Source: Vulcanimicrobiaceae bacterium (GTDB lineage Bacteria > Vulcanimicrobiota > Vulcanimicrobiia > Vulcanimicrobiales > Vulcanimicrobiaceae). From it: a stretch of DNA of 11,787 bases. The stretch is from positions 1 to 11,787 of the forward strand of contig JBHEMM010000032.1 of NCBI GenBank assembly GCA_046262595.1, in the 5' to 3' direction. Below are positions 1 through 11,787 of this stretch, one piece after another (the first letter of the stretch is position 1; every line of letters starts with the position of its first letter). Below the pieces are notes generated by a model. It made no database searches. It worked only from the letters and a program-made list of their open reading frames with translations, and was not told the DNA's origin. The position numbers and the translations under genes are program-made.

Positions 1-194
1 GCATTACTCGCATCAGGACTAAATGAGATTGACCGCCCTTCAGAAACGGCAGCTAAAAAATCTTCTCGTGTCATTGCTCCACACCGACGATAGGCCTCAG
101 CGAGGGGCCCACGACGCATATAGGCTGCGCCGATTCACGAGGCCTTTGGAAGAGGCGCCTCAAACCCAATGCGCTTCTGGGGCTACCTGCGTCG

Positions 195-217
195 ACTGTA
201 TGCGCAACTGTATGCGC
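195..217. repeat. Tandem 11-bp direct repeat ACTGTATGCGC (195-205, 207-217), possible tyrosine-integrase arm-type sites
   Basis: Two exact copies with a 12-bp period about 50 bp beyond the tRNA 3' end. An 8/9 inverted copy (CGCATATAG) lies at 115-123. The repeat is seen directly; the function is inferred. Confidence 0.45.
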
Positions 218-222
218 GTAGG

Positions 223-260
223 AAAAGAAATAAGGCCCTGCGATGTGCAAAGCCTTATTT
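223..260 (-). terminator. Intrinsic terminator of tRNA-Asn
   Basis: Minus-strand RNA AAAUAAGGCUUUGC-ACAUC-GCAGGGCCUUAUUU forms a 14-bp stem with 2 G-U pairs, followed by CUUUU. It starts 4 nt after the tRNA CCA. Confidence 0.75.
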
Positions 261-264
261 TTCA

Positions 265-340
265 TGGCTCCGGATGCTGGACTCGAACCAGCGACCCGCT
301 GATTAACAGTCAGCTGCTCTACCAACTGAGCTAATCCGGA
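265..340 (-). tRNA. tRNA-Asn (anticodon GTT), CCA encoded
   Basis: Reverse complement TCCGGATTAGCTCAGTTGGTAGAGCAGCTGACTGTTAATCAGCGGGTCGCTGGTTCGAGTCCAGCATCCGGAGCCA is 76 nt, with acceptor stem TCCGGAT/ATCCGGA, D-arm, anticodon loop CT-GTT-AA and T-loop TTCGAGT. Confidence 0.98.
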
Positions 341-441
341 ACGTTCTTCTTCGACGGGTGCATGAGCCGGTCGAAGGGGGCCCGCGATTATTAGGCATCC
401 CGCCCCGGCCTCCTTTGCCGGGGCATTGAAGAAAGCGTAAA

Positions 442-1650
442 GTGTCCTCCGTCTTTTCGTCACCCAGCTTTCGCCGCTATTACACGGGTCAAGCGCTCAG
501 TTTGCTCGGCGATGGTCTGCGCGTGCTGGCAGTACCGCTGCTCGTCTATAAGCTGACGGGGTCGGCGCTTTCGACCGGCGTTTCTTACGTGTGCGAGATT
601 GCGCCGTTTTCGATTTTCGGCCTCATCGGCGGGTCGCTCGCGGATCGCCTGGACCGCCGGATGTTGATGATCGGCACGGACGCGGTGCGCTGCGCCATCA
701 TGACGGCGTTCGCGCTGCTCTACGCGGCACATGCGCTTACAATCCCCATGCTGTACGGCGGTCTCATTCTGATCTCGATGTGCGCCGCGGTGTTCTTGGG
801 CGGCCAGGCGTCCAGCATTCCGTTTCTGCTCGGCAAAGAGCGTGCGACGCAGGCAATCGCGGCGATCAATGCTGCGGAAAGTTCATCGAACCTGATTACG
901 CCGGCCATCGGCGGCGCGATCTTCAGCATCTTCGGGCCCTTGCCGGCGCTCGCAGTCAATGCTTTCACGTACTTGTGCTCCCAACTCGTACTCGGCAGCA
1001 TTAAAACGCTAGGGCCTGAAAAAGTGAGCGGGCTGCCCGATTTGCGAACGATCGGCAAAGACATTGCGCTGGGTTTCCGCTTCGTCTTCGGCGATCGCGG
1101 AATGCGCGCTCAAGCGTATGCGAGTTGCACGCTCAACCTCATCGGCTTCGGCGGCTTTTCGATCATCATCCCATTCTTGAAGAAAACGTTCGGTGCAAGC
1201 GATCCCCAAGTGGGCCTATTCTTCAGCATGACGGCCGTCGGAGCGGTCTGCGGCTCGCTTGCCGCCGCGCGCATCGGTTCGCGCTGGCCCATCGGGCGCA
1301 TGCTGTGCGTCGCGCTGACGCTGGATTCGCTGCTGTTCATCCCCGTCGTCCTCACGCGCAACATGTGGGTTGCGGGAACGTTCTGGGCCATCGGCAATGG
1401 CTGCGCCTACTTCGAGATCGCGCAGATCATCGGATTCCGTTTGCGCATCACGCCCGAGCCGTACGTCGGACGGGTGTTCGGCGTCGTGCGTCTCGTGGTG
1501 CTGTGCGGCATGGCGCCCGGCATTTTGGGCTTCGGCTATCTCGCGGACCACTACAATCCGCATGCCGCGATGACGGTGTCGGCGATCGCTTACGTCTTCG
1601 TCGCGCTGGGCGCCATCGCAACGCCCGCAATACGCGAAGAGCGCCGCTAA
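442..1650 (+). CDS. MFS transporter (DHA3/macrolide-efflux-like, 12 TM)
   Basis: 402 aa with about 12 hydrophobic segments, MFS motif A (GGSLADRLDRR), N-terminal FRRYYTGQALSLLGD and C-half ITPEPYVGRVFG pattern. GTG start. Confidence 0.92.
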   Translation: MSSVFSSPSFRRYYTGQALSLLGDGLRVLAVPLLVYKLTGSALSTGVSYVCEIAPFSIFGLIGGSLADRLDRRMLMIGTDAVRCAIMTAFALLYAAHALTIPMLYGGLILISMCAAVFLGGQASSIPFLLGKERATQAIAAINAAESSSNLITPAIGGAIFSIFGPLPALAVNAFTYLCSQLVLGSIKTLGPEKVSGLPDLRTIGKDIALGFRFVFGDRGMRAQAYASCTLNLIGFGGFSIIIPFLKKTFGASDPQVGLFFSMTAVGAVCGSLAAARIGSRWPIGRMLCVALTLDSLLFIPVVLTRNMWVAGTFWAIGNGCAYFEIAQIIGFRLRITPEPYVGRVFGVVRLVVLCGMAPGILGFGYLADHYNPHAAMTVSAIAYVFVALGAIATPAIREERR

Positions 1651-1663
1651 ACGCGGCGCTCTT
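1637..1663. terminator. Perfect 11-bp hairpin between convergent genes, possible bidirectional terminator
   Basis: AAGAGCGCCGC-TAAAC-GCGGCGCTCTT, with the MFS stop codon in the loop. The U-tract is weak. Confidence 0.5.
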
Positions 1664-1687
1664 GCATTTGCGGGTCGAGAGGCGTTC

Positions 1688-2281
1688 TTAGTACGGGCGT
1701 CCGGCTTGGCGGCGGACCATCAGCGGACGCGTGAGCGTCAGTTGGAAGTTCGTGCCCTGCTTCATCACGATGTTCGACTTCTTGTTGTAGCCGACCAGGA
1801 ATCCGCCCACTGCTCCGACGGCTCCGCCCAGGCCGCTGTGGAAAATCGTCTTGCCGATGATGTTGCCGGCGAGCATGCCGCCGATCGTCGTGAGCGCGAC
1901 GTGGCCGCCGTTGCGCGTTTGCTGCTGCGGCGCGCCGGTGGTCATCACGGCGTTGATCGGATAGCTCGCGCCGTTCTGCAGCGTGATGCTGTCCCACGCG
2001 AAGTGCAGTTGGGGCGTGCGGCCTTGGCCGGCCTGAACCACTTTAACGATCGTGCCGTTCACGATCGCATTTTGGAAGGTCGTGTCGTCGTTTGGATACG
2101 GTGCTATGACGCGCGCGGTGAAGTGCTGGCCCGCATACGCGTTGCCCGAGTCAACGGTGTCCTGCATCTGCACGTTGACGGCCTGACCTTGCGAAAGCGT
2201 CACGGTCTGAGCGAGCGCTGCTACAGGCAGCATGAATGCCAGGAGCATCGCCAGCGCCGGGATTCTGCTTGGATGGATCAT
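1688..2281 (-). CDS. Secreted protein with VirB10/TrbI-like beta domain and glycine-zipper hairpin
   Basis: Strong SD AAGGAG 5 nt before ATG and a Sec signal peptide (AMLLAFMLPVAALA|Q). Sequence pattern VNVQMQDTVDS..AGQHFTARV..IVNGTIVKV..LHFAWDSITL, Gly-rich TIGGMLAG..GGAVGAVGG, and C-terminal GTNFQLTLTRPL. The family is recognised by pattern only. Confidence 0.7.
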   Translation of the reverse strand: MIHPSRIPALAMLLAFMLPVAALAQTVTLSQGQAVNVQMQDTVDSGNAYAGQHFTARVIAPYPNDDTTFQNAIVNGTIVKVVQAGQGRTPQLHFAWDSITLQNGASYPINAVMTTGAPQQQTRNGGHVALTTIGGMLAGNIIGKTIFHSGLGGAVGAVGGFLVGYNKKSNIVMKQGTNFQLTLTRPLMVRRQAGRPY

Positions 2282-2341
2282 GAGTTCTCCTTTTATACCT
2301 CTACCGGGGTTGATTCGGTGCCATGGTGCCCATGGTGTCTG

Positions 2342-2369
2342 TTACGTAGAACGTTGCGCGTCTACGTAA
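2342..2369. other. 9-bp inverted repeat overlapping the metK stop codon
   Basis: TTACGTAGA (2342-2350) pairs with TCTACGTAA (2361-2369). There is no U-tract on the minus strand. Confidence 0.4.
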
Positions 2370-3582
2370 AGTTCGGCACCTTGAGCGCCTGCGTGCCGGC
2401 TGCCTTGCGAAGCGCCTCAACCTTGTCCAAGCGCTCCCACGGCAGGTCGAGATCCGGACGCCCGAAGTGCCCGTACGCGGCCGTCTGGCGGTAGATCGGG
2501 CGGCGCAAATTCAGATGCTGGATGATGGCGGCCGGGCGCAGATCGAACGTCGTTTTCACGAGCTCGGCAATCTGCTCTTCGGGAATCTTCGCCGTTCCGA
2601 ATGTCTCCACCAGAACGCTGACCGGATGCGCAACGCCGATCGCATACGCAACCTGCACCTCGCACCGATCGGCCAAACCTGCTGCAACGACGTTTTTTGC
2701 AACGTGGCGCGCTGCGTACGCTGCCGAGCGATCGACCTTCGTCGGATCTTTGCCGGAAAACGCGCCGCCGCCGTGACGCGCCATGCCGCCGTACGTGTCG
2801 GCGATAATTTTGCGTCCGGTCAGGCCCGCATCGCCCTTCGGCCCGCCGATGACGAAACGGCCCGTCGGATTGACGTAGACGCGCGTACGCTCGTCGCGCA
2901 GCGAGGCCGGAATAACGTGGTTTATCACTTTTTCGGTGATCTCGGCCCGAATCGTTTCGAGGGGAATATCCGGATCGTGCTGCGTCGAGATCACGACCGC
3001 TTCGACGCGCACCGGCATATCGTTTTCGTACTCGACCGTCACTTGCGATTTGCCGTCGGGCCGCAGATACGGAATGTCGCCGTTCTTGCGCAGCGCGCTC
3101 AAATGACGGGTGAGATTGTGCGCCAGCACGATTGGCAGCGGCATGAGCTCCTCGGTTTCGCGGCACGCGTAGCCGAACATCATGCCCTGATCGCCCGCAC
3201 CGATCGTCTCGAAGGCGTCCTCGGGGTGTTGACCTGTTTTCGCTTCGAGCGACTTGTCGACGCCCATCGCGATATCGGCCGACTGCTCGTCCACCGACAC
3301 GCTTACGCCGCACGTTTCCGCATCGAATCCGACGGCGGACTTCGTGTAGCCGATGTCGGCAATGACTTCACGAACGATGCGCGGAATATCCACGTACGTC
3401 GTCGTGCTGATCTCTCCGGCGATGTGGATCTGACCCGTGATCGCAAATGTCTCGCAGGCGACGCGTCCGTTCGGGTCGGCTGCGAGAATCGCGTCCAGCA
3501 CGGCATCGGAGATCTGATCCGCGACTTTGTCTGGATGACCTTCGGTGACCGACTCGCTGGTGAAAAGACGACGGTACGCCAT
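2362..3582 (-). CDS. metK: S-adenosylmethionine synthetase (methionine adenosyltransferase)
   Basis: Signature motifs [48 protein letters not shown] and TAAYGHFGR. Confidence 0.99.
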
Positions 3583-3586
3583 TCGC

Positions 3587-4924
<1,338 letters not shown>

Positions 4925-4973
4925 TCATATTCTGCCCGAGGTTTACCCGGCCCGCCACCAAATGTGTCGCATT

Positions 4974-5531
4974 GTGGATAGTTTGGACGGATATCTGACA
5001 AAACTCGCATCCTCCGAGCCCACGCCGGGCGGCGGAAGCGCCGCGATGGTCTGCGGGGCGCTCGCGTGTTCGCTGGTTGCGATGGTCGCGCGCATCTGTC
5101 ACGCGGAAGGACTTGCCGAAGAAGCTGACGCCCTGCGCGAGCAGATGACCGTCATGCGCGAGCAAGACGAACGGGCGTTCCAAGCCGTCGTGGACGCCAA
5201 GGGTGACGCCGATGCGGTGCAGCGGGCGCTGTTCGGCGCGGCGGCAGCGCCGCTTCAAGGCGCTGGCGCGGCGTTTGAAGCGCTCAAGTTATGCGAGCGC
5301 GCGCTCGCGCTCAACAACCGGCATCTGATCAGCGACGTCGGATGCGCCGCGGAGTTTGCGCACGCCGCCGTGACGGCATGCGCCTATAACGTGCGCGTGA
5401 ACCACCGTTACATCAAGGCAAGCCGCGAACGCGCCGATGTTGCCGCGCAGCGCACGGCGCTGGGATCGCTCGAGGCGCAGGCGCGCGCGCTGTATCAGCG
5501 CACCGCCGATGCGGTCGCGGGCGGCTTATAA
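4974..5531 (+). CDS. fchA: Cyclodeaminase/cyclohydrolase family protein (FTCD C-terminal domain; FchA-like methenyl-THF cyclohydrolase)
   Basis: Motifs YLTKLASSEPTPGGGSAA..GAL..SLVAMVARI, D..AF, NRHLISDVGCAAEFA and AYNVRVN. The start is GTG 4974 or ATG 4962; the listed 4527 start runs antisense over ahcY. Confidence 0.85.
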   Translation: MDSLDGYLTKLASSEPTPGGGSAAMVCGALACSLVAMVARICHAEGLAEEADALREQMTVMREQDERAFQAVVDAKGDADAVQRALFGAAAAPLQGAGAAFEALKLCERALALNNRHLISDVGCAAEFAHAAVTACAYNVRVNHRYIKASRERADVAAQRTALGSLEAQARALYQRTADAVAGGL

Positions 5532-5586
5532 CGACGGCGCGGTCCAAAGGCGTTCCTGACGAATTGCGCGCCCGAAGTGGCGTTGA

Positions 5587-6393
5587 TTAGCGCTCTACAG
5601 TCCTCAGAAAAGGACGGATGTCGGCTTCGTCAACCTCCATGCCGACGCCCCTGCGGTGATAACGGATGTCGTGGAAATCGGCGCCCGCAGTCATCAATAG
5701 GCCGTACTGTTTGGCGCGATCGCGAAAATATTGAATTTGCCCCGCTTCGTGCGTCGGGTAAAACACCTCGAGGCCGCGCAGCCCGCGTTCGGCAAGCGTC
5801 CCGATCATCGCGTAATCGCGCAAGCGCCCCGGGTGCGCCAGTACCGGAATACCGCCGGACTCCAAAATGACATCGATCGCCTCGTACGGCGTGATGTGCG
5901 TGGACGGCACGTAACCGGGGGTACCGCGGCGTAAGAACTTGCGGAAAGCCGTTTCAATGTCGGGCGCGATGCCCAAAGACACCAAGGCTTTACCCACGTG
6001 CGGCCGTCCCAGCGAAGCGCCTTCTTTCGCGTGCGCGTGAACGTCCTCGAGCGTCAGCTCGTGCCCCGCGCCGCGCAGCAGATCGACGATGCGCGCGATG
6101 CGCACGCGGCGCGCCGCGCGATTCGCTTCGAGCACGCGCGAGAGCGCTGAGTCACCCAAGGGCAGCCGGTAGCCCAGCACGTGCACTTCGCCGTCATCCC
6201 ACGTGGTGTTGATTTCGATGCCCGTCACGACCCGCGCGCCGCCCGTATCCAGCGGCTCGCGGTACGCGCCGAGTGTGTCGTGATCCGTAATGGAGAAGAC
6301 GCAGACGCTGCGTTCGCGCATGAACGCGCACAGCGCCGCAGGTGAAAGCGAACCGTCGCTTTCCCACGTATGGGAATGAAAGTCGACCAGCAA
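5587..6393 (-). CDS. PHP-domain phosphoesterase (YciV/TrpH-like 3',5'-nucleoside bisphosphate phosphatase family)
   Basis: Motifs DFHSHT..SDG, ITDHDT, GIEI, EVHVLGY, GRPH, LAHP, GLEV and GADFH. TTG start 5 nt after the spoVS stop. Confidence 0.93.
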   Translation of the reverse strand: MLVDFHSHTWESDGSLSPAALCAFMRERSVCVFSITDHDTLGAYREPLDTGGARVVTGIEINTTWDDGEVHVLGYRLPLGDSALSRVLEANRAARRVRIARIVDLLRGAGHELTLEDVHAHAKEGASLGRPHVGKALVSLGIAPDIETAFRKFLRRGTPGYVPSTHITPYEAIDVILESGGIPVLAHPGRLRDYAMIGTLAERGLRGLEVFYPTHEAGQIQYFRDRAKQYGLLMTAGADFHDIRYHRRGVGMEVDEADIRPFLRTVER

Positions 6394-6398
6394 GCCGC

Positions 6399-6698
6399 TT
6401 AAGTCAGGGGGCGCCGCTCGACTGCGAGCGAGATGCCGGTCCGCTCGTTACCGTTGATCTCAACGTCCATGAAGGAAGGCACGCACGCCAGGTCGATCTC
6501 TCCGCCCTTCAAATAGCTGCGGGCGATGGCCACCGCCTTGACCGCCTGATTGATCGCACCGGCGCCGACGGCTTGCAGCTCAGCCGCCGTCCGTTCGCGC
6601 AGAACGGCCGCGAGTGCGCCTGCAACGGAGTTCGGATTGCTCTTCGCCGAGACTTTGAGCACGCTGCTCGTAAGTTGCCGTACGGGATTTTCAATCAT
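6399..6698 (-). CDS. spoVS: Stage V sporulation protein S family (Alba-like nucleic-acid-binding fold)
   Basis: VLKVSAKSNPNSVAGALA..QAVGAGAINQAVKAVAIAR..CVPSF.DVEINGNERTGI. ATGA overlap with the ymdB stop. Confidence 0.96.
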   Translation of the reverse strand: MIENPVRQLTSSVLKVSAKSNPNSVAGALAAVLRERTAAELQAVGAGAINQAVKAVAIARSYLKGGEIDLACVPSFMDVEINGNERTGISLAVERRPLT

Positions 6699-7492
6699 GC
6701 TATGCCTCGTTGGAAGATGCGCTTGATCTCCGTAGCGCGGCCGGACCCTACGTCGACTGTTACGACGGCAGCGCAGAATTGTTTGCTTCCGGACTTCTGT
6801 ACCGAAAACCGCTCGGACACTCCTAAGGTGAAGCGTTCTAAAACAGCGTCCGTTTCCATCCCGATGACGCCGTCCGTCGGGCCGGTCATGCCGACATCGC
6901 TCACGTAGGCGGTGCCGCCGGGCAAAAGGTGCTCGTCCGCCGTCTGCACGTGCGTATGCGTGCCGTACACAGCCGAGACGCGTCCGTCGAGGTAGCGCCC
7001 CAGGGCGACTTTTTCGCTGGTGGCTTCGGCATGCACGTCCACGACGATGATGCTCGTGCGCTGTTCCATTTCCGCGACGGCGGCTTCCGCAACACGAAAC
7101 GGGTCGTCCACCGGCGGCATGAACGTGCGGCCCATGATATTGAGAATGCCCACGGTGGCGTCTCCAGCTTTAATGAAGTTGAAGCCGCGGCCCGGAACGC
7201 CCGGCGGATAGTTCGCCGGCCGCACGACGCGCTCGCTTTCCTCTAAGTACGTCTTGAACTCGCGCTTATCGAAGATGTGATTGCCGCTTGTAATGAAGTC
7301 GACGCCGGACTCAAACATTTCGCGCGCGGTTTGAGCGGTGAGGCCGAAACCGGCTGCCGCGTTCTCGCCGTTAGCGATGCACAGGTCGATGCCGTGCTGG
7401 TCGCGCGCCAGAGGCACGCAGCGCTTGAGCGTATCGCGTCCGGGGGAGCCGACGACGTCCCCGATGAGGAGCAGGCGCAGCGAAGTAGCTAT
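6695..7492 (-). CDS. ymdB: YmdB/TIGR00282 family metallophosphoesterase (2',3'-cyclic nucleotide phosphodiesterase); true start non-canonical (ATA 7492 or CTG 7480)
   Basis: Motifs NGENAAAGFG, TSGNHIFD, RPANYP, DVHAEATSEK, GTHTHVQTAD and DVGMTGP. The in-frame extension upstream of the listed 7417 start reads LRLLLIGDVVGSPGRDTLKRC, the family's first metal-binding motif. Confidence 0.93.
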   Translation of the reverse strand: MATSLRLLLIGDVVGSPGRDTLKRCVPLARDQHGIDLCIANGENAAAGFGLTAQTAREMFESGVDFITSGNHIFDKREFKTYLEESERVVRPANYPPGVPGRGFNFIKAGDATVGILNIMGRTFMPPVDDPFRVAEAAVAEMEQRTSIIVVDVHAEATSEKVALGRYLDGRVSAVYGTHTHVQTADEHLLPGGTAYVSDVGMTGPTDGVIGMETDAVLERFTLGVSERFSVQKSGSKQFCAAVVTVDVGSGRATEIKRIFQRGIA

Positions 7493-8037
7493 CTGCGGGC
7501 CGACGCCTTAGCTTTTTTCTGCGCTTTCAGAAAGTACACGAGCACCCGCTTCTCTTCGCGGAAGCCCACCAGACTTCTGGATTGCGCCGGATCGCGCAGC
7601 GCCTCGATGGCGGATTCGGCAAGTTCGTCCTGCAGCACGGGATCCTCATCCGGCTGCTCGTCCGGAACGGGGTTGCGCACGAGCGCCGCGCCGAAGCGTT
7701 CGCAGAACAGACCCACGAGCATCGCCAATTCGCCGTTGCTGAACGTCTCGAGATCGCGGCTGACATGAACGAAACTCATCGCACGGTCCGACTCGCACTC
7801 GACCAGCACGCTGCCCTCGTCACCGCCCAGGGCCAAGAAGCCGTCGACGTGTTCCTCGATGTCCGCCGCCAATGCGCGCTGCGCGCTTTTGTCGATCCGC
7901 TGCGAGACCGCAAATGAAAAGCGCACGCTGTTCTCGCCCGACGCCGAACGCATCGAAGCGATCTCCGGATAGCGCACGAGCAGTGCGCAGACCAGCGAAA
8001 CGGTATCGCTATTTTCGACGGGTAAACGGGCGCTCAT
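7489..8037 (-). CDS. Hypothetical acidic soluble protein, first gene of the ymdB-spoVS-PHP operon
   Basis: 182 aa with a plausible SD (GAAGG) and a stop overlapping the ymdB start. SLVCALLVRYPEI and LVGFREEKRVLVY resemble an uncharacterised protein recalled next to ymdB in Firmicutes (not verified). Confidence 0.75.
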   Translation of the reverse strand: MSARLPVENSDTVSLVCALLVRYPEIASMRSASGENSVRFSFAVSQRIDKSAQRALAADIEEHVDGFLALGGDEGSVLVECESDRAMSFVHVSRDLETFSNGELAMLVGLFCERFGAALVRNPVPDEQPDEDPVLQDELAESAIEALRDPAQSRSLVGFREEKRVLVYFLKAQKKAKASARR

Positions 8038-8165
8038 AACGGCACGGACCTTCTCTTCCGGGGGTGGGGGTCGGGTCTATTAGACGCCGCCTGAAGGGGC
8101 ACCCCTCTCCCCTTCTGCGACTTCTAACCCCCCCCGCTAGAGGGCGGGGTTGCACCAAAGGACCC

Positions 8166-8194
8166 CGGCTAGGGACGCTTTTTGTCCCTGGCCG
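8166..8194. promoter_or_regulatory. Inverted repeat CGGCTAGGGAC-N7-GTCCCTGGCCG in the divergent intergenic region (operator or RNA hairpin)
   Basis: 10/11 Watson-Crick symmetry, fully paired with one G-U on the + strand. It lies between the divergent starts at 8037 and 8272. Confidence 0.45.
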
Positions 8195-8271
8195 CGCGGA
8201 CCGGCAGCCCTCACCAGGGAAGCGGCCGGGGCGGTAAGATTCTTTCACGCTAATGCGATGAGGGGATGACT

Positions 8272-9276
8272 ATGCGCTTTGCCCGCTCCTGGGCCGCTCC
8301 TGCGGCAGTTCTGATGCTTTCCTTGCTGGCTGCGTGCGGCGGCGGCGGGGGCGGAGGCTCGGTGACGCCGCCCGGCGGCGGCAACGGCGGCGGCGCAACG
8401 CCGACGCCGCACGCGACGGCCACACCGGCTCCTGGCGCGACCGCAACACCCACGCCGGGTGCGACGGCAACGCCTACGCCGACCGCAACCGCCACGCCGA
8501 CTGCGGCCGCGACCGCAACGCCGACGCCGAGTGCGTCAACGACGCCTTCCGCGCTCAGCTGGGTCGCTGCGGGGACCGGTAACATCAATGGCTCAGACGA
8601 CCAGTTCGTCAGCAGCGAACCGCACACGGGCAACAGCAACAACGGCGAAGGCAACCTCATGCCGGGCGATCAGGGCGCCCAGCCCAACGGCGGCGGGCAA
8701 GGTCCGGTGGGGACCGGCGCGGTGGACGGCATCACGTGCGACGCCTCGATGTCGAACAACTATCATGTCCACGCGTTCGTCGGGCTCTTTGTAAACGGCA
8801 CCGAGATCGCGATCCAGGACGCGGCCGGCATGGTGAACCCGTACGGCGACTTCGGTCCATCGGCAGACACCGACGGCTATCCGAATCAAGAAATCTACGC
8901 CACGTGCTTCTACGATCTGCACACGCATGACGCAAGCGGCATGGTGCACATCGAGAGCACCAACCCAACCGGCGCGACGATCAATCAGTCGATCTACAAC
9001 GTGAACAACTTCTTCGACGTCTGGGGCGTCATGGTGAACTCCACGCAGTTCGGTAAGTTCAGCGGTCCGGTTGTCGTATACACCTCGGGCCAGCTCTCTC
9101 GCGCCGGCCAGTGCCAGGGCCAATACTGCGAGGTGGGCTCGAACAGCTACTCTCTATGGACCGGCGATCCCACGCAGATCCCGCTCTACTCGCACGAAGT
9201 GATCTGGTACGAAGTTGGGACTGGCAACCCGGACGCGGCGCATTTGCCCGGCGTTAACTTCGCCATCACCCAGTAG
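8272..9276 (+). CDS. Lipoprotein with Gly and Pro/Thr/Ala linker and a C-terminal His-motif (putative metal-binding) domain
   Basis: SD GAGGGG 6 nt before ATG 8272 and lipobox LAAC (Cys22 at 8335). Domain motifs YHVHAFVGLFVNG, CFYDLHTHDASGMVHIES and FFDVWG. Tandem stops TAG TAA. Confidence 0.85.
   Translation: MRFARSWAAPAAVLMLSLLAACGGGGGGGSVTPPGGGNGGGATPTPHATATPAPGATATPTPGATATPTPTATATPTAAATATPTPSASTTPSALSWVAAGTGNINGSDDQFVSSEPHTGNSNNGEGNLMPGDQGAQPNGGGQGPVGTGAVDGITCDASMSNNYHVHAFVGLFVNGTEIAIQDAAGMVNPYGDFGPSADTDGYPNQEIYATCFYDLHTHDASGMVHIESTNPTGATINQSIYNVNNFFDVWGVMVNSTQFGKFSGPVVVYTSGQLSRAGQCQGQYCEVGSNSYSLWTGDPTQIPLYSHEVIWYEVGTGNPDAAHLPGVNFAITQ
8395..8550 (+). repeat. Intragenic imperfect 24-bp (8-aa) repeat encoding an ATATP(T/A)Px linker
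   Basis: Encodes ATPTPH-ATATPAPG-ATATPTPG-ATATPTPT-ATATPTAA-ATATPTPS. Confidence 0.8.
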
Positions 9277-9290
9277 TAAGGCGTCTGGGC

Positions 9291-9317
9291 GGCGGAGCGC
9301 AAGAATCGCGCTCCGCC
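9291..9317 (+). terminator. GC-rich hairpin after the lipoprotein gene
   Basis: Perfect 10-bp stem GGCGGAGCGC-AAGAATC-GCGCTCCGCC. The U-tract is weak (CTTCTT about 8 nt later). Confidence 0.55.
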
Positions 9318-9328
9318 CTCCGCGCTTC

Positions 9329-9358
9329 TTGCAGTCGAGCGGCGTTGCTCAGTATGAT
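9329..9358 (+). promoter_or_regulatory. Sigma70-type promoter for the RPPP-leader / cytochrome-porin operon
   Basis: TTGCAG (9329-9334), 18-nt spacer, TATGAT (9353-9358). ATG 9368 follows 9 nt later with no SD, suggesting a near-leaderless mRNA. The spacer holds a GAGC-N6-GCTC dyad. Confidence 0.6.
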
Positions 9359-9367
9359 AGTGGCAGC

Positions 9368-9919
9368 ATGAAAGCACTCTCCCGGCCGGGCCGGGTCATG
9401 GCACACGCGCTCGTCGCAGCCGCGCTCGGCCTACCCGTCGCGCTTTTGGCGCATGCCTTCGCGTTCGGAAGCAACCACGCTGTAGCCGGGGCGCTCCAAA
9501 GCGCTGCGCTGGCCGGCGGCGCGCTTGTCCTGCTGAGCGTGGTCGCGTTATCGGCGCGCGCGACGGCGCAAGGCACGATCGCCGCGGCGCGCGTGCGCGC
9601 GCACTTGCCGCATGCGGTTTGGCTGAGCATCTCCGGCGCCGCCTGGTTCGGGCTGCTCGAGTTGTGTGAATCGCCGCACGCCATCGCGGCAGCCGGTGTT
9701 GCCGCTGCACTGATCGTTGCATCTCTAGCCATTCACGCGCTCGTCGGCGCATTCGCGCGCTGGCTTGCCGCCATCGCGATCGCCGTCTGCACCGGACGTT
9801 TCGATGCGAGGGCGCGCGCAAACCACGTGCCGGCTTTTTCATTCTTTGCACCGCGTGCGCATCGTCTGCTCGCGCACTCCACGCGGCTGTTTTCGCGGCC
9901 GCCCCCTGCCTTTTCCTAA
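9368..9919 (+). CDS. His-rich 4-TM membrane protein ending in RPPP; putative regulatory leader / translation-arrest ORF
   Basis: 183 aa from ATG 9368 with about 4 hydrophobic helices, 10 His and an ELCESPH loop. The C-terminus is LFSRPPPAFS*, with RPPP codons at 9896-9907. Confidence 0.78.
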   Translation: MKALSRPGRVMAHALVAAALGLPVALLAHAFAFGSNHAVAGALQSAALAGGALVLLSVVALSARATAQGTIAAARVRAHLPHAVWLSISGAAWFGLLELCESPHAIAAAGVAAALIVASLAIHALVGAFARWLAAIAIAVCTGRFDARARANHVPAFSFFAPRAHRLLAHSTRLFSRPPPAFS

Positions 9920-9953
9920 ACGCCGCGCGTTTCTTCACCCGTTTAGGAAAGGC
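9908..9953 (+). promoter_or_regulatory. SD-sequestering mRNA hairpin (translational attenuator)
   Basis: TTTCCTAAACG (9912-9922) is the exact complement of CGTTTAGGAAA (9940-9950), extended by GCC/GGC across a 1-nt bulge. The 3' arm carries the AGGAAAGG SD of the ATG at 9959. Confidence 0.85.
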
Positions 9954-9958
9954 TCACC

Positions 9959-11704
9959 ATGTCCGGTTTTTCTTCGGGCGCGCGCAGCTTGTGCGCCGTC
10001 GTCCTTCTCCTTCTCGGCGCGCACGCGAACGCGTCGGCGATTCCAGTCTTCGCGAACGGTCAAGGCGTCTCGTGTGAAACGTGCCACACGACGTTTCCGG
10101 GCATGACGCGCTACGGCATGTCCGTGATGATGACAAACTTTCAAATTTTGAACCGCCATCTGCAAGACCAGGCGCTGCCGGTTTCCGCGCGTCTATACAT
10201 CACCTCGCTTCTGGGCAACGGCGATCATCCGGGCTCAACGACGGTGGACGATCTCTCGCTGCTCGCAGGCGGTTTTTTAGGGCGAAACTTCACGTGGTAC
10301 GGCGAGCAGCATGTTATCGACACCGGAATGCCCGGCGAGACGGAGCAGCTGTGGCTGTCTTGGAACGGCGTGCTGCGTGGAACGAACTCGCTGCAAGTCG
10401 GTAAATTGCATACGCCGTTTCCTTTCATGCCGGCGCACGCGTGGACGATAAGCCCGTATCTTTTGGCAACGCAAACGACGGGCGAGAACACGTTCAACCC
10501 CAGTGATGCGCGCTGGGGCGCCGCATTCAACGGCATGTCGAACGAGTTCATGTACAGTCTCTCCTGGCTGACCGGCAGCGGGCCCACCGGCGACGCGCTC
10601 AATTACAACAAGACAGCCAACCCGCGCGCCCTCGACGCCAACATCTCGTACGGCGGCATGCAGCTGCCCTGGACCGCCGGCTTGGTTGCGATGCGCGGCG
10701 ATTCGCCGGTGAACGATCCGCTTTCGGGTCGTTTCCTGACCAGCAACGCCTTCACGCGCGCAGGCGTCTACTTCGCATATCAAGATGCGATGTGGCACTA
10801 TCAAACGATGCTGTACCGCGGTTCGGACGCAAACCCCGGCGTCGGATTGACGAATGTTCCGCTGAGCGGATTTTTCTTTGAGGCGGAGCGCGATCTTGGT
10901 TGGCGCAATCATCTTCTTCTGCGTTACGATGTGGCGTCGAGCGACACGCTCAACCGTCAGCTCGTCGCGGACCTCTCGCACAATCTTGCGCCGAACGCGG
11001 CGGTCATCGCTGAAGTTGCGGGCTATCCCGGCGCTAAGCCGGCGGTCGGCCTGAGGCTTGCCTACGCCGGCCCCTACGAGAGCGGCAAGCGCTTCTTGCG
11101 CAACGCAACCGTTGTGCCGGTAAACACCCAGAGCGCGAAGACTTCCGCGCAGCCGGCTGCCGCGGCGTCCGCGCCGCCCGCAACCAGCGGTGATGCGAAC
11201 AATGGCGCCAAACTGGTGCAGGCAAACGGCTGCGCCGGTTGTCACGGTGCCGCATTGCGGGGCGGATCCGTCGGCCCCGCGCTCTTCGGCATCGAGCACA
11301 AACTCTCGAGCCCGCACATTGCAGACTTCATCGCACACCCTCGGGCGCCCATGCCGAATTTCGGCTTCAGCGCGCAGCAGATTGGCGACATCGTCGCTTA
11401 CCTCTCGAACTTGGACGGCGGTGCGGCGCAGGGTCCCGTCGTAACGTTCGATCCGACCACGCCGACCGATCACGCAACGATAACCGTGCGCTTCCCCGGA
11501 ACTCCGCCGGCTGCGGTAAGCGTTGTACCAACGATGCACATGGGCTCGGCGGCAATGGCAGCGCGCGCGGTACCTTTAACGCAATCGGCCTCCGACCCGC
11601 ACGTTTTCACCGGACCGGTCGTGTTTTCGATGAGCGGACCGTGGACCGTGCGCATCGAGTACGACGGCAAAACGCTCGACGTCCCGCTCAACGTGGGACA
11701 GTAA
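9959..11704 (+). CDS. Cyc2-like heme c/outer-membrane porin fused to a second cytochrome c domain and a YtkA-like domain
   Basis: Signal peptide ending ASA|IP, then AIPVFANGQGVSCETCHTTFPGMTRYG (Cyc2-type N-terminus, CxxCH at residues 39-43). About 300 aa of amphipathic aromatic beta-strands and an Ala/Pro linker follow. Then come CAGCHG..GP.L..MPNF (class I cytochrome c, C425-H429, M465) and C-terminal MHMG..FTGPVVFSMSGPWTVRIEY. Confidence 0.85.
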   Translation: MSGFSSGARSLCAVVLLLLGAHANASAIPVFANGQGVSCETCHTTFPGMTRYGMSVMMTNFQILNRHLQDQALPVSARLYITSLLGNGDHPGSTTVDDLSLLAGGFLGRNFTWYGEQHVIDTGMPGETEQLWLSWNGVLRGTNSLQVGKLHTPFPFMPAHAWTISPYLLATQTTGENTFNPSDARWGAAFNGMSNEFMYSLSWLTGSGPTGDALNYNKTANPRALDANISYGGMQLPWTAGLVAMRGDSPVNDPLSGRFLTSNAFTRAGVYFAYQDAMWHYQTMLYRGSDANPGVGLTNVPLSGFFFEAERDLGWRNHLLLRYDVASSDTLNRQLVADLSHNLAPNAAVIAEVAGYPGAKPAVGLRLAYAGPYESGKRFLRNATVVPVNTQSAKTSAQPAAAASAPPATSGDANNGAKLVQANGCAGCHGAALRGGSVGPALFGIEHKLSSPHIADFIAHPRAPMPNFGFSAQQIGDIVAYLSNLDGGAAQGPVVTFDPTTPTDHATITVRFPGTPPAAVSVVPTMHMGSAAMAARAVPLTQSASDPHVFTGPVVFSMSGPWTVRIEYDGKTLDVPLNVGQ

Positions 11705-11705
11705 C

Positions 11706-11787
11706 GTGCGCCGCCGCGACTTCCTGGGCGCCGGCGGCGGCGCAATGCTCGCGCTTACGCTGCCGCGTCTCTCGTCCGCGGCTTCCG
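11706..11787 (+). CDS. Tat-exported protein, 5' fragment only (runs off the window)
   Basis: GTG 1 nt after the previous stop. Reads MRRRDFLGAGGGAMLALTLPRLSSAAS, a twin-arginine RRxFL motif plus h-region. Not in the supplied ORF track. Confidence 0.7.
   Translation, partial: MRRRDFLGAGGGAMLALTLPRLSSAAS

Follow-up and report, generated by a model that had tools for sequence, protein, structure and literature searches.

A conserved four-helix membrane leader ending in RPPP as a probable ribosome-stalling switch at copper-related loci of Vulcanimicrobiota

The window analysed here covers positions 1-11,787 of a contig of 29,912 bases (JBHEMM010000032.1) from a Vulcanimicrobiaceae bacterium, whose genome has a G+C content of 62.7%. 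Its subject is the leader gene P0004, which lies directly upstream of P0001, a gene for a cytochrome-porin, and whose last codons pair with P0001's Shine-Dalgarno (SD) sequence. P0004 is a conserved four-helix inner-membrane protein with a cluster of His and Glu residues on the face that a sequence-derived topology predicts to be periplasmic. By analogy with characterised arrest peptides, P0004 is most likely a ribosome-stalling switch of a kind known from other bacteria, and comparison among its relatives gives the predicted regulatory role good support. In particular, it is probable that P0004 serves as a cis-acting translational leader that resembles CutF and CruR in action, belongs to a different protein family, and allows a stalled ribosome to unmask the SD of the next gene.

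The leader gene and its putative arrest motif

P0004 runs from an ATG at 9368 to a TAA at 9917-9919, and its 183-residue translation ends in ...RLFSRPPPAFS. Arg177 is encoded at 9896-9898, the prolines Pro178-Pro180 at 9899-9907 and the final Ala-Phe-Ser at 9908-9916. An earlier reading of this stretch from its letters (the sequence-only reading) had described a 183-residue open reading frame (ORF) with about four transmembrane (TM) segments ending in SRPPPAFS, which is borne out by the translation, the AlphaFold2 model and the hydropathy profile. The same reading had noted the absence of a CxxC motif, and indeed Cys100 and Cys141 are the only cysteines, so no CxxC is present. The features of the leader and of the stem at its 3' end are as follows, with pLDDT denoting the predicted local distance difference test score.

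9368-9919, + strand: leader gene P0004, 183 amino acids, four predicted membrane helices, both termini predicted inside (translation, homologues, AlphaFold2 pLDDT 86)
9452-9499, + strand: predicted periplasmic-face motif 1, His29...His37...Gly41...residue 44, the last being Gln in P0004 (alignment conservation)
9659-9679, + strand: predicted periplasmic-face motif 2, Glu98-x-x-Glu101-x-x-His104, at the end of helix 3 (alignment conservation)
9689-9790, + strand: helix 4, residues 108 to about 141 (AlphaFold2 helix 108-151, hydropathy profile)
9884-9907, + strand: putative arrest motif R-L-F-S-R-P-P-P, residues 173-180, with the core RPPP at 9896-9907 (alignment conservation)
9908-9922, + strand: 5' arm of the stem (anti-SD), comprising the final three sense codons, the TAA at 9917-9919 and 3 nt (RNAfold, comparison)
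9940-9953, + strand: 3' arm of the stem, including the SD AGGAAAGG at 9945-9952 (RNAfold, comparison)

The motif is close to invariant across the family. In an alignment of 149 full-length representatives, over which residue conservation was counted, R177, P179 and P180 are each found in 149/149, and position 178 is Pro in 144 and Ala in five; the persistence of a terminal R(P/A)PP, which the sequence-only reading had set as a check, thereby extends to all 149. A direct count in 155 family proteins gave 143 with RPPP, six with RAPP and six that are truncated or frameshifted, and RPPP is present at all 73 loci examined from relatives. The number of residues after the motif is three in 57 proteins, six in 30, five in 14 and seven in 13, over a range of 0-17. 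At most nine residues follow it in 141 of the 143 RPPP members, the remaining two having 16 and 17. Distant members from two other families of the class carry the C-terminal ends FKRPPPAI, FNRPPPALQV and FNRPPPSLQSA.

A stem that sequesters the SD of the downstream gene

Folding of 9880-9975 with RNAfold pairs 9908-9913 and 9915-9922 with 9940-9953, forming 14 bp arranged as 6+8 around a bulged U9914, with a loop of 17 nt. The SD AGGAAAGG lies in the 3' arm, 6 nt upstream of the ATG at 9959. The minimum free energy (MFE) is -32.9 kcal/mol, compared with -22.3 +/- 2.8 in 200 dinucleotide shuffles (z = -3.75), none of which was as stable. The coordinates of the stem and its SD content agree with the sequence-only reading, but the 11+3 bp that had been described give way to 6+8 bp with the bulged U9914. 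No Rfam family matched 9100-10100 at E <= 1.

Among the 73 loci collected from relatives for comparison of the stem and its neighbouring genes, in which downstream starts were assigned by an SD-scored choice, two stem architectures are found, the anti-SD being formed either by the Pro codons or by those that come directly after PPP. Members of the window's class have three residues and a stop after RPPP, and the anti-SD consists of the last codons plus the stop codon, as seen in the arm pairs CTTTCCTAA with TTAGGAAAG, CTTCCTTAA with TTAAGGAAG and CGCTTAAACGC with GCGTTTAAGG. The larger class has 5-8 residues after RPPP and uses the Pro codons as the anti-SD, typically CCTCCTCCGATCG with CGATCGGAGGAG; this is the case in about two thirds of the loci. 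The same design recurs in distant members from other families, whose arms have unrelated sequences, for example CTCTCCAAGTC with GACTTGGAGAG in L098.

In MFE folds, at least 6 of the 13 nucleotides of the SD window are paired with the zone from the Arg codon to eight nucleotides past the stop in 65 of 72 loci (a count that omits L077). The specificity of the pairing is seen in an arm-swap test on 69 distinct loci, from which L009, L077, L079 and L081 were omitted for an unclear downstream start or a tiny intervening ORF. Cognate arms gave -16.6 kcal/mol and non-cognate arms -12.5 kcal/mol, a result that none of 10000 permutations reached and that also holds inside each architecture class. Compensatory changes were counted on MAFFT alignments built without structure fitting. 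In the window's class (19 sequences), 78.6% of cells are paired and 21 cells carry double changes, compared with 12.6 +/- 3.0 in shuffles (0/500 reaching the observed count); every slid register is worse, and RNAalifold independently recovers the stem between stop codon and SD. In the Pro-codon class (42 sequences), 76.6% of cells are paired, with 19 double-change cells compared with 7.7 +/- 2.3 (0/500). Covariation of the anti-SD stem, another check set by the sequence-only reading, is thus found in the alignments, the swap test, the RNAalifold consensus and the distant members alike.

The Pro codons vary synonymously at 22 loci, those whose anti-SD is located 3' of them, the second codon being CCG in 11, CCT in six, CCC in four and CCA in one. 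At the 47 loci where the Pro codons are the anti-SD, they are fixed as CCT-CCT-CCG. This synonymous variation indicates that the motif is selected as a peptide and that, in most members, it has also been recruited as RNA.

Some further features of the leader 3' ends were observed. A second small hairpin of 8 bp with a UUUC loop lies at 9883-9902, overlapping the codons of Arg177 and Pro178, and a scan for terminator-like elements flags 9870-9886. In L013 (G012 C1), the leader frame continues for 36 codons beyond RPPP and overlaps the start of the receptor gene, and the SD is still paired with the Pro codons. In L077 and L079, the Pro codons pair with the SD of a tiny ORF (17 codons in L079), the end of which overlaps the start of a redoxin gene of the AhpC/TSA type, an arrangement that looks like a two-step relay. 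RNAduplex comparison of the leader end with the 160 nt downstream returned long, meaningless GC-rich interactions and was discarded.

Fold, topology and spacing of the leader protein

AlphaFold2, run with the alignment of 149 sequences, predicts P0004 with a mean pLDDT of 86 as long helices at residues 7-33, 41-62, 83-99 and 108-151, a short helix at 69-79 and a disordered tail at 152-183. The hydropathy profile is concordant with these helices, and the hydrophobic part of helix 4 ends at about residue 141, which is 36 residues before R177, as the sequence-only reading had placed it. Lys and Arg residues occur in the N-terminus, the loop 63-82 and the C-terminal tail, and there are none in the loops 34-40 and 100-107. 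Following the positive-inside rule, this distribution would place both termini in the cytoplasm and H29, H37, residue 44 and E98/E101/H104 at the periplasmic face.

These residues are highly conserved in the family. H29 is found in 135/135 and H37 in 137/137 non-gap rows, position 44 is His in 115/149 members, E98 is present in 149/149, E101 in 148/149 (with one Asp) and H104 in 137/149. E101 is spaced 72-79 residues from the arrest-motif Arg, and 144/149 members fall within 72-76. The distance from membrane segment to motif, which the sequence-only reading had marked for comparison, is therefore constant to within a few residues, whether counted from the sensor-like motif or from the last helix. 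L098 (G030 C11), the distant member belonging to a different family of the class, has CPFC (a CxxC) and then AH at the position of ExxExxH, which hints at a link to Cys-based sensors.

Proposed mechanism and its alternatives

By analogy with RAPP peptides, the ribosome would pause at the motif with the codon at 9902-9904 in the P site and that at 9905-9907 in the A site. On the 3' side of its P-site codon, a ribosome occupies roughly 12-15 nt. The paused ribosome would cover about 9908-9917, which includes all the nucleotides of the 5' arm that pair with AGGAAAGG; the stem would be held open, and the free SD would let a second ribosome initiate at the ATG at 9959. With a short pause, the stem would re-form after termination and the downstream gene would be poorly translated. 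In the larger class, the paused ribosome would sit directly on the anti-SD, and a ribosome that does not pause would free the SD only briefly, with the stop lying 5-8 codons further on.

Several observations weigh against unmasking by a stalled ribosome. Seven of the 72 loci have no SD pairing in the MFE fold. The shuffle control for SD pairing is weak, with 9.2 of 13 nucleotides paired in the real sequences and 7.2 in shuffled ones, because any purine-rich SD will find pairing partners in a C-rich leader end. Relatedness among sequences is also left out of account by the permutation and shuffle tests. The genome encodes elongation factor P (EF-P), a reliever of poly-Pro pauses. As the 5' arm includes the stop codon in the window's class, any terminating ribosome would also open the stem and a stall is not strictly required. 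Furthermore, P0004 is conserved along its whole length and has a confident predicted fold, and it may also be functional as a mature protein, unlike the rapidly degraded CutF.

Some of these points would be expected of plain translational coupling, in which any ribosome at the last codons opens the stem, P0004 is a stable membrane subunit of a copper system, and RPPP at most lengthens the dwell of the ribosome without tuning by a ligand. The stop codon at 9917-9919 within the 5' arm and the full-length conservation of a confident four-helix bundle fit this account, as does the overlap between the start of second-copy leaders and the stop of an oxidase gene (described below), which is itself classical coupling. 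On the other hand, in about two thirds of loci the anti-SD is formed by the Pro codons and the stop follows 5-8 codons further on, so that the stem would best be held open by a ribosome dwelling on the motif. Coupling alone also leaves unexplained the invariance of R-(P/A)-P-P, the interchange of RPPP and RAPP, and the fixed spacing from E101 to Arg. It is the geometry of the larger class that forms the main reason for preferring stall-dependent unmasking, which we consider probable, to plain coupling, which appears rather unlikely.

The weak shuffle control bears on a further alternative, in which RPPP is a motif of the mature protein, such as a cytosolic polyproline docking site, and the stem either serves mRNA stability or arises as a by-product where C-rich Pro codons neighbour a purine-rich SD. 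C-rich Pro codons do pair with any SD, as the 7.2 of 13 nucleotides still paired by shuffled leader ends attest. Nevertheless, this explanation is most improbable: in the window's class the anti-SD differs from the Pro codons and the stem is yet kept with compensatory changes, RPPP always stands 0-17 residues from the stop at the very end of a disordered tail, and RAPP, a proven arrest motif, substitutes for RPPP in some members.

More speculatively, the length of the stall-dependent pause would be set from outside the cytoplasm. With the ribosome at RPPP, helices 1-3 would already be in the membrane and helix 4 would be just out of the exit tunnel. A metal, most likely copper, at the His/Glu site would alter the insertion or packing of helix 4, and the changed pulling force would release the arrest. 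From the fixed spacing and the precedents of MifM, SecM and CutF, we infer that release by helix-4 insertion could be modulated by metal in this manner. The predominance of uptake-type genes downstream (TonB-dependent receptors, CopCD and Sco) speaks for genes expressed when copper is low and for a stall that copper would release. A fuller form of this proposal, which is offered tentatively as a possibility, would make P0004 a co-translational, force-gated metal sensor. In that form, helices 1-3 would build a periplasmic-face His3/Glu2 copper site during synthesis of the tail, and the occupancy of this site would decide whether helix 4 inserts with enough force to break the arrest. The design would switch uptake genes (TonB-dependent receptor, CopCD) and the cytochrome-porin/multicopper-oxidase module across the phylum, from an apparently leaderless mRNA and with the stall codons as the anti-SD in most members.

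Comparison with known arrest leaders

In the cutFOG operon of Rhodobacter capsulatus, stalling at the C-terminal PPP of CutF melts a stem-loop that hides the SD of cutO (PMC9973294; bioRxiv 10.1101/2025.02.05.636593). P0004 shares with CutF a membrane-targeted or exported leader, a C-terminal PPP beside a basic residue, a stem-loop between leader and next gene that shields the SD, a multicopper oxidase in the operon, and proposed sensing that is extracytoplasmic and co-translational. CutF differs in being shorter than 150 residues, with a cleavable signal peptide and CxxxC, and in being degraded after export, whereas P0004 has 183 residues, four helices, a His/Glu motif and no CxxC. In addition, the gene directly downstream in the window is a cytochrome-porin rather than the oxidase.

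The DUF2946 family (PF11162) gave no match to P0004 at E <= 10 and none to 146 family representatives at E <= 0.1. A six-frame search with PF11162 likewise gave no hit over the cut-off in 41 related genomes and no sub-threshold match at the leader locus. Of the features by which DUF2946 leaders are known, P0004 has the C-terminal Pro-rich motif within the last 15 residues (RPPP plus three residues), lacks CXXC or CXXXC, and is not a short secreted protein of <150 residues with a signal peptide. It also has the hallmark of the CutF type, a stem that pairs the downstream SD with the 3' end of the leader. The distinctness from DUF2946 asserted in the sequence-only reading is consistent with the failure of P0004 and its relatives to match the profile. 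Its further claim of a different sensor class was overstated, as a census of CutF-like proteins already contains clusters with histidine-only metal motifs (PMC9973294) and arrest peptides with four TM segments are known (PMC12992588).

CruR of Bordetella pertussis carries CXXC and a RAPP located three residues ahead of its C-terminus, lies upstream of a TonB-dependent transporter and acts via Rho (PMC9426467); its arrest has been toeprinted (PMC12992588). As with CruR, a TonB-dependent transporter lies downstream in 60 of 73 relatives of P0004, and the spacing between metal motif and arrest motif is conserved. In CruR, RAPP and CXXC are 45 residues apart, the spacer measures 162 nt and termination depends on Rho, whereas P0004 has RPPP, ExxExxH plus His, a spacing of about 74 residues, a 39-nt spacer (mostly 26-68 in relatives) and an SD-sequestering stem. 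Control of transcription in the manner of CruR, with the stalled ribosome blocking Rho or another terminator between leader and next gene and the stem being secondary, would accord with the action of CruR upstream of a TonB-dependent transporter (PMC9426467) and with the 60 receptor genes at the 73 loci. It is quite improbable, as the spacers are short compared with the 162 nt of cruR-bfrG (PMC9426467), the co-varying conserved element is specifically the pairing of the SD, and no U-tract stands 3' of the window's stem.

Small proteins with RAPP or RGPP, many with TM segments, are over-represented upstream of genes for TonB-dependent receptors, YcnI and PCuAC (PMC12992588). Arrest has been demonstrated for Streptomyces lividans proteins with four predicted TM segments, among which SLIV_18480 has a predicted His-based copper site (PMC12992588, EMBO J 2025). 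Like them, P0004 is a polytopic leader that carries R-x-P-P at its C-terminal end, has conserved His residues as predicted copper ligands and precedes a metal-related gene. By its published description, the S. lividans protein belongs to another phylum, is longer (the Arg being at 273), has RAPP or RGPP as its motif and arrests both in vitro and in vivo (PMC12992588). As four-helix RAPP arrest peptides beside metal genes were reported in Streptomyces in 2025, the P0004 family is not a new class. Ten supplement files of PMC12992588 make no mention of Eremiobacterota, Vulcanimicrobiota or Baltobacter, one further file having been left out of the search.

MifM, SecM, ApdA and ApdP have C-terminal arrest motifs of the R-A-(G/P)-P type, which the putative motif of P0004 resembles. 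P0004 also shares with them an N-terminal segment for membrane insertion or export, a stem that hides the SD and would be opened by a stalled ribosome, and a linker from membrane segment to arrest site in the range of insertion forces. The genes under the control of those leaders encode Sec or YidC components, and what they monitor is the localisation machinery itself, whereas the P0004 loci have metal-handling genes downstream and conserved ligand residues at the predicted periplasmic face. Relative to the RAPP-like class, the Arg is invariant, but the second position is mostly Pro (144 Pro, 5 Ala), and none of the 73 loci lies upstream of sec or yidC. RPPP has been listed as 'RAPP-like' (PMC10987492), and no report of arrest at RPPP came to light.

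Arrest leaders of the CutF and CruR type that report extracytoplasmic metal are a recent discovery, and the published censuses are limited to proteins of <150 residues or to RAPP and RGPP; the RPPP family of P0004 would escape both filters. P0004 would extend the leader principle to the Eremiobacterota and to an unrelated, sensor-like body of four helices. The comparative evidence for the mechanism is unusually clean, combining pairing of the SD with stall codons or their neighbours, interchange of RPPP and RAPP, and fixed spacing. Additionally, the family offers a natural series on how metal binding could be coupled across a membrane to ribosome release, and it would help to annotate the copper-handling operons of a phylum from which hardly any member has been cultured.

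Distribution of the leader family

Neither Pfam nor NCBIfam contains a model that matches P0004, even at E <= 10. Homologues were found in 14 of 41 related genomes by a single-protein search and in 213 of 401 genomes sampled across the phylum by a profile of 21 sequences (A1); they occur in 208 of 296 genomes of the window's own family and in four genomes from two other families of the class. The tally of 401 counts seven genomes flagged as unpublished, from which no loci were taken. A HMMER search of 1.84 billion representatives gave 275 clusters (50% identity) at E <= 0.001. Most full-length members have 160-200 residues, and the source names, Candidatus Baltobacteraceae and Cybelea, belong to the Eremiobacterota (NCBI name Vulcanimicrobiota). 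A profile search for homologous proteins with alignment A4 gave 9 proteins only.

Foldseek found no match to the P0004 model in the PDB at E <= 0.001, and the neighbours of P0004 in the ESM Atlas are unnamed and without a Pfam family; one neighbour cluster labelled Actinomycetota is a lead only. DUF6412 was rejected as an assignment, its ESM Atlas score of 0.81 being at chance level and no family member matching it. Literature searches found no published description of the family. In P0158, a protein of 119 residues, profile positions 1-84 of the leader are fused to a SecA_DEAD fragment (E = 3.6e-9); the gene call is probably chimeric or truncated.

Upstream region of the leader

The start of P0004 has no visible SD, and a -10-like hexamer stands close to it.

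9353-9358, + strand: TATGAT, -10-like hexamer, 9 nt upstream of the ATG of P0004 (sequence reading)

Together, these two features suggest that the P0004 mRNA may be leaderless or nearly so. Relatives in which the leader is the first gene have TATGAT or TAGAAA 6-11 nt upstream of the start codon, with TATGAT in the window's class and TAGAAA in the larger, Pro-codon class. The arrangement of hexamer and start codon was read at 9353-9370 of the window, in L002, L003, L006, L007, L011, L038, L039 and L056, and in most loci of the Pro-codon class. A further upstream pattern, GTACGACGC ... CAAGGCC ... TAGAAA, is common to loci of the larger class and may represent a promoter plus a regulator site. 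A scan with the sigma-70 consensus found no full promoter upstream of P0004.

Downstream genes and copper context

P0004 heads a metal-homeostasis operon, as DUF2946 leaders do; it is on the same strand as the gene that it would regulate and is separated from it by a short spacer.

9959-11704, + strand: P0001, with a signal peptide, a CETCH haem motif, a 16-strand porin-like barrel, a cytochrome c domain and a C-terminal beta-sandwich (sequence, structure comparison)
8266-9276, + strand: upstream lipoprotein P0002, with a C-terminal domain paralogous to the 254-residue operon protein (35% identity over 167 residues, E = 4.5e-25)

In P0001, CETCH occupies residues 39-43 and the cytochrome c domain residues 412-482. 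Its 16-18 long beta-strands match the general porins OmpU, Omp32 and OmpT (Foldseek E ~1e-9, TM-score to target 0.6-0.7), and the name cytochrome-porin given in the sequence-only reading is apt on the grounds of the haem motif, the barrel and the cytochrome domain. The architecture presumably resembles that of Cyc2-type iron oxidases. At least 211 relatives of P0001 were found at E <= 1e-5, and the source names seen are all from the same phylum.

On the contig, P0001 is followed by a multicopper oxidase, an epimerase, a 254-residue protein, a Sco protein and a Sco-like membrane protein. The multicopper oxidase carries HWHG and HCHNEIHMMDGMM, the 254-residue protein HxH and HTHD, and the Sco protein CKDVCP. 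The C-terminal domain of P0002 and the 254-residue protein (contig C32, 14132-14896) both contain HVHxH and HTHDxSG and have no Pfam family; their shared domain may be an unnamed metal-binding domain.

At all 73 loci, the leader and the gene that follows it point in the same direction, and the latter is mostly related to copper. It encodes a TonB-dependent receptor in 60, a CopC-CopD fusion in two, a cytochrome c in two, a redoxin in two (reached via the tiny ORF) and an exported protein of about 300 residues without a named family in five. The downstream genes of L009 and L029 matched no family, that of L029 being a sequence homologue of P0001. None of the 73 encodes a Sec or YidC component. 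The CopC-CopD, multicopper oxidase, Sco-like and TonB-dependent receptor genes lend support to the link with copper.

Certain operons carry two leaders. In G002, one precedes the cytochrome-porin and oxidase genes, and the other overlaps the stop of the oxidase gene and precedes the receptor gene. A second copy between the multicopper oxidase and TonB-dependent receptor genes is found at L018 (G002 C66), with leaders at 2135-2665 and 5923-6441, and likewise at L004, L005, L015, L036, L037, L048 and L090. The start codon of the second copy, GTG or ATG, overlaps the stop of the oxidase gene (GTGA or ATGA).

The exported proteins of about 300 residues stand after the leader in L055, L060, L075, L084 and L087 and have no Pfam or NCBIfam family. 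In L055, L075 and L087, where it was read, the mature N-terminus begins with HVVCG(D/N)RVFPTT, following a signal peptide that ends in AQA, and the proteins of L055 and L087 have an aromatic-rich C-terminus.

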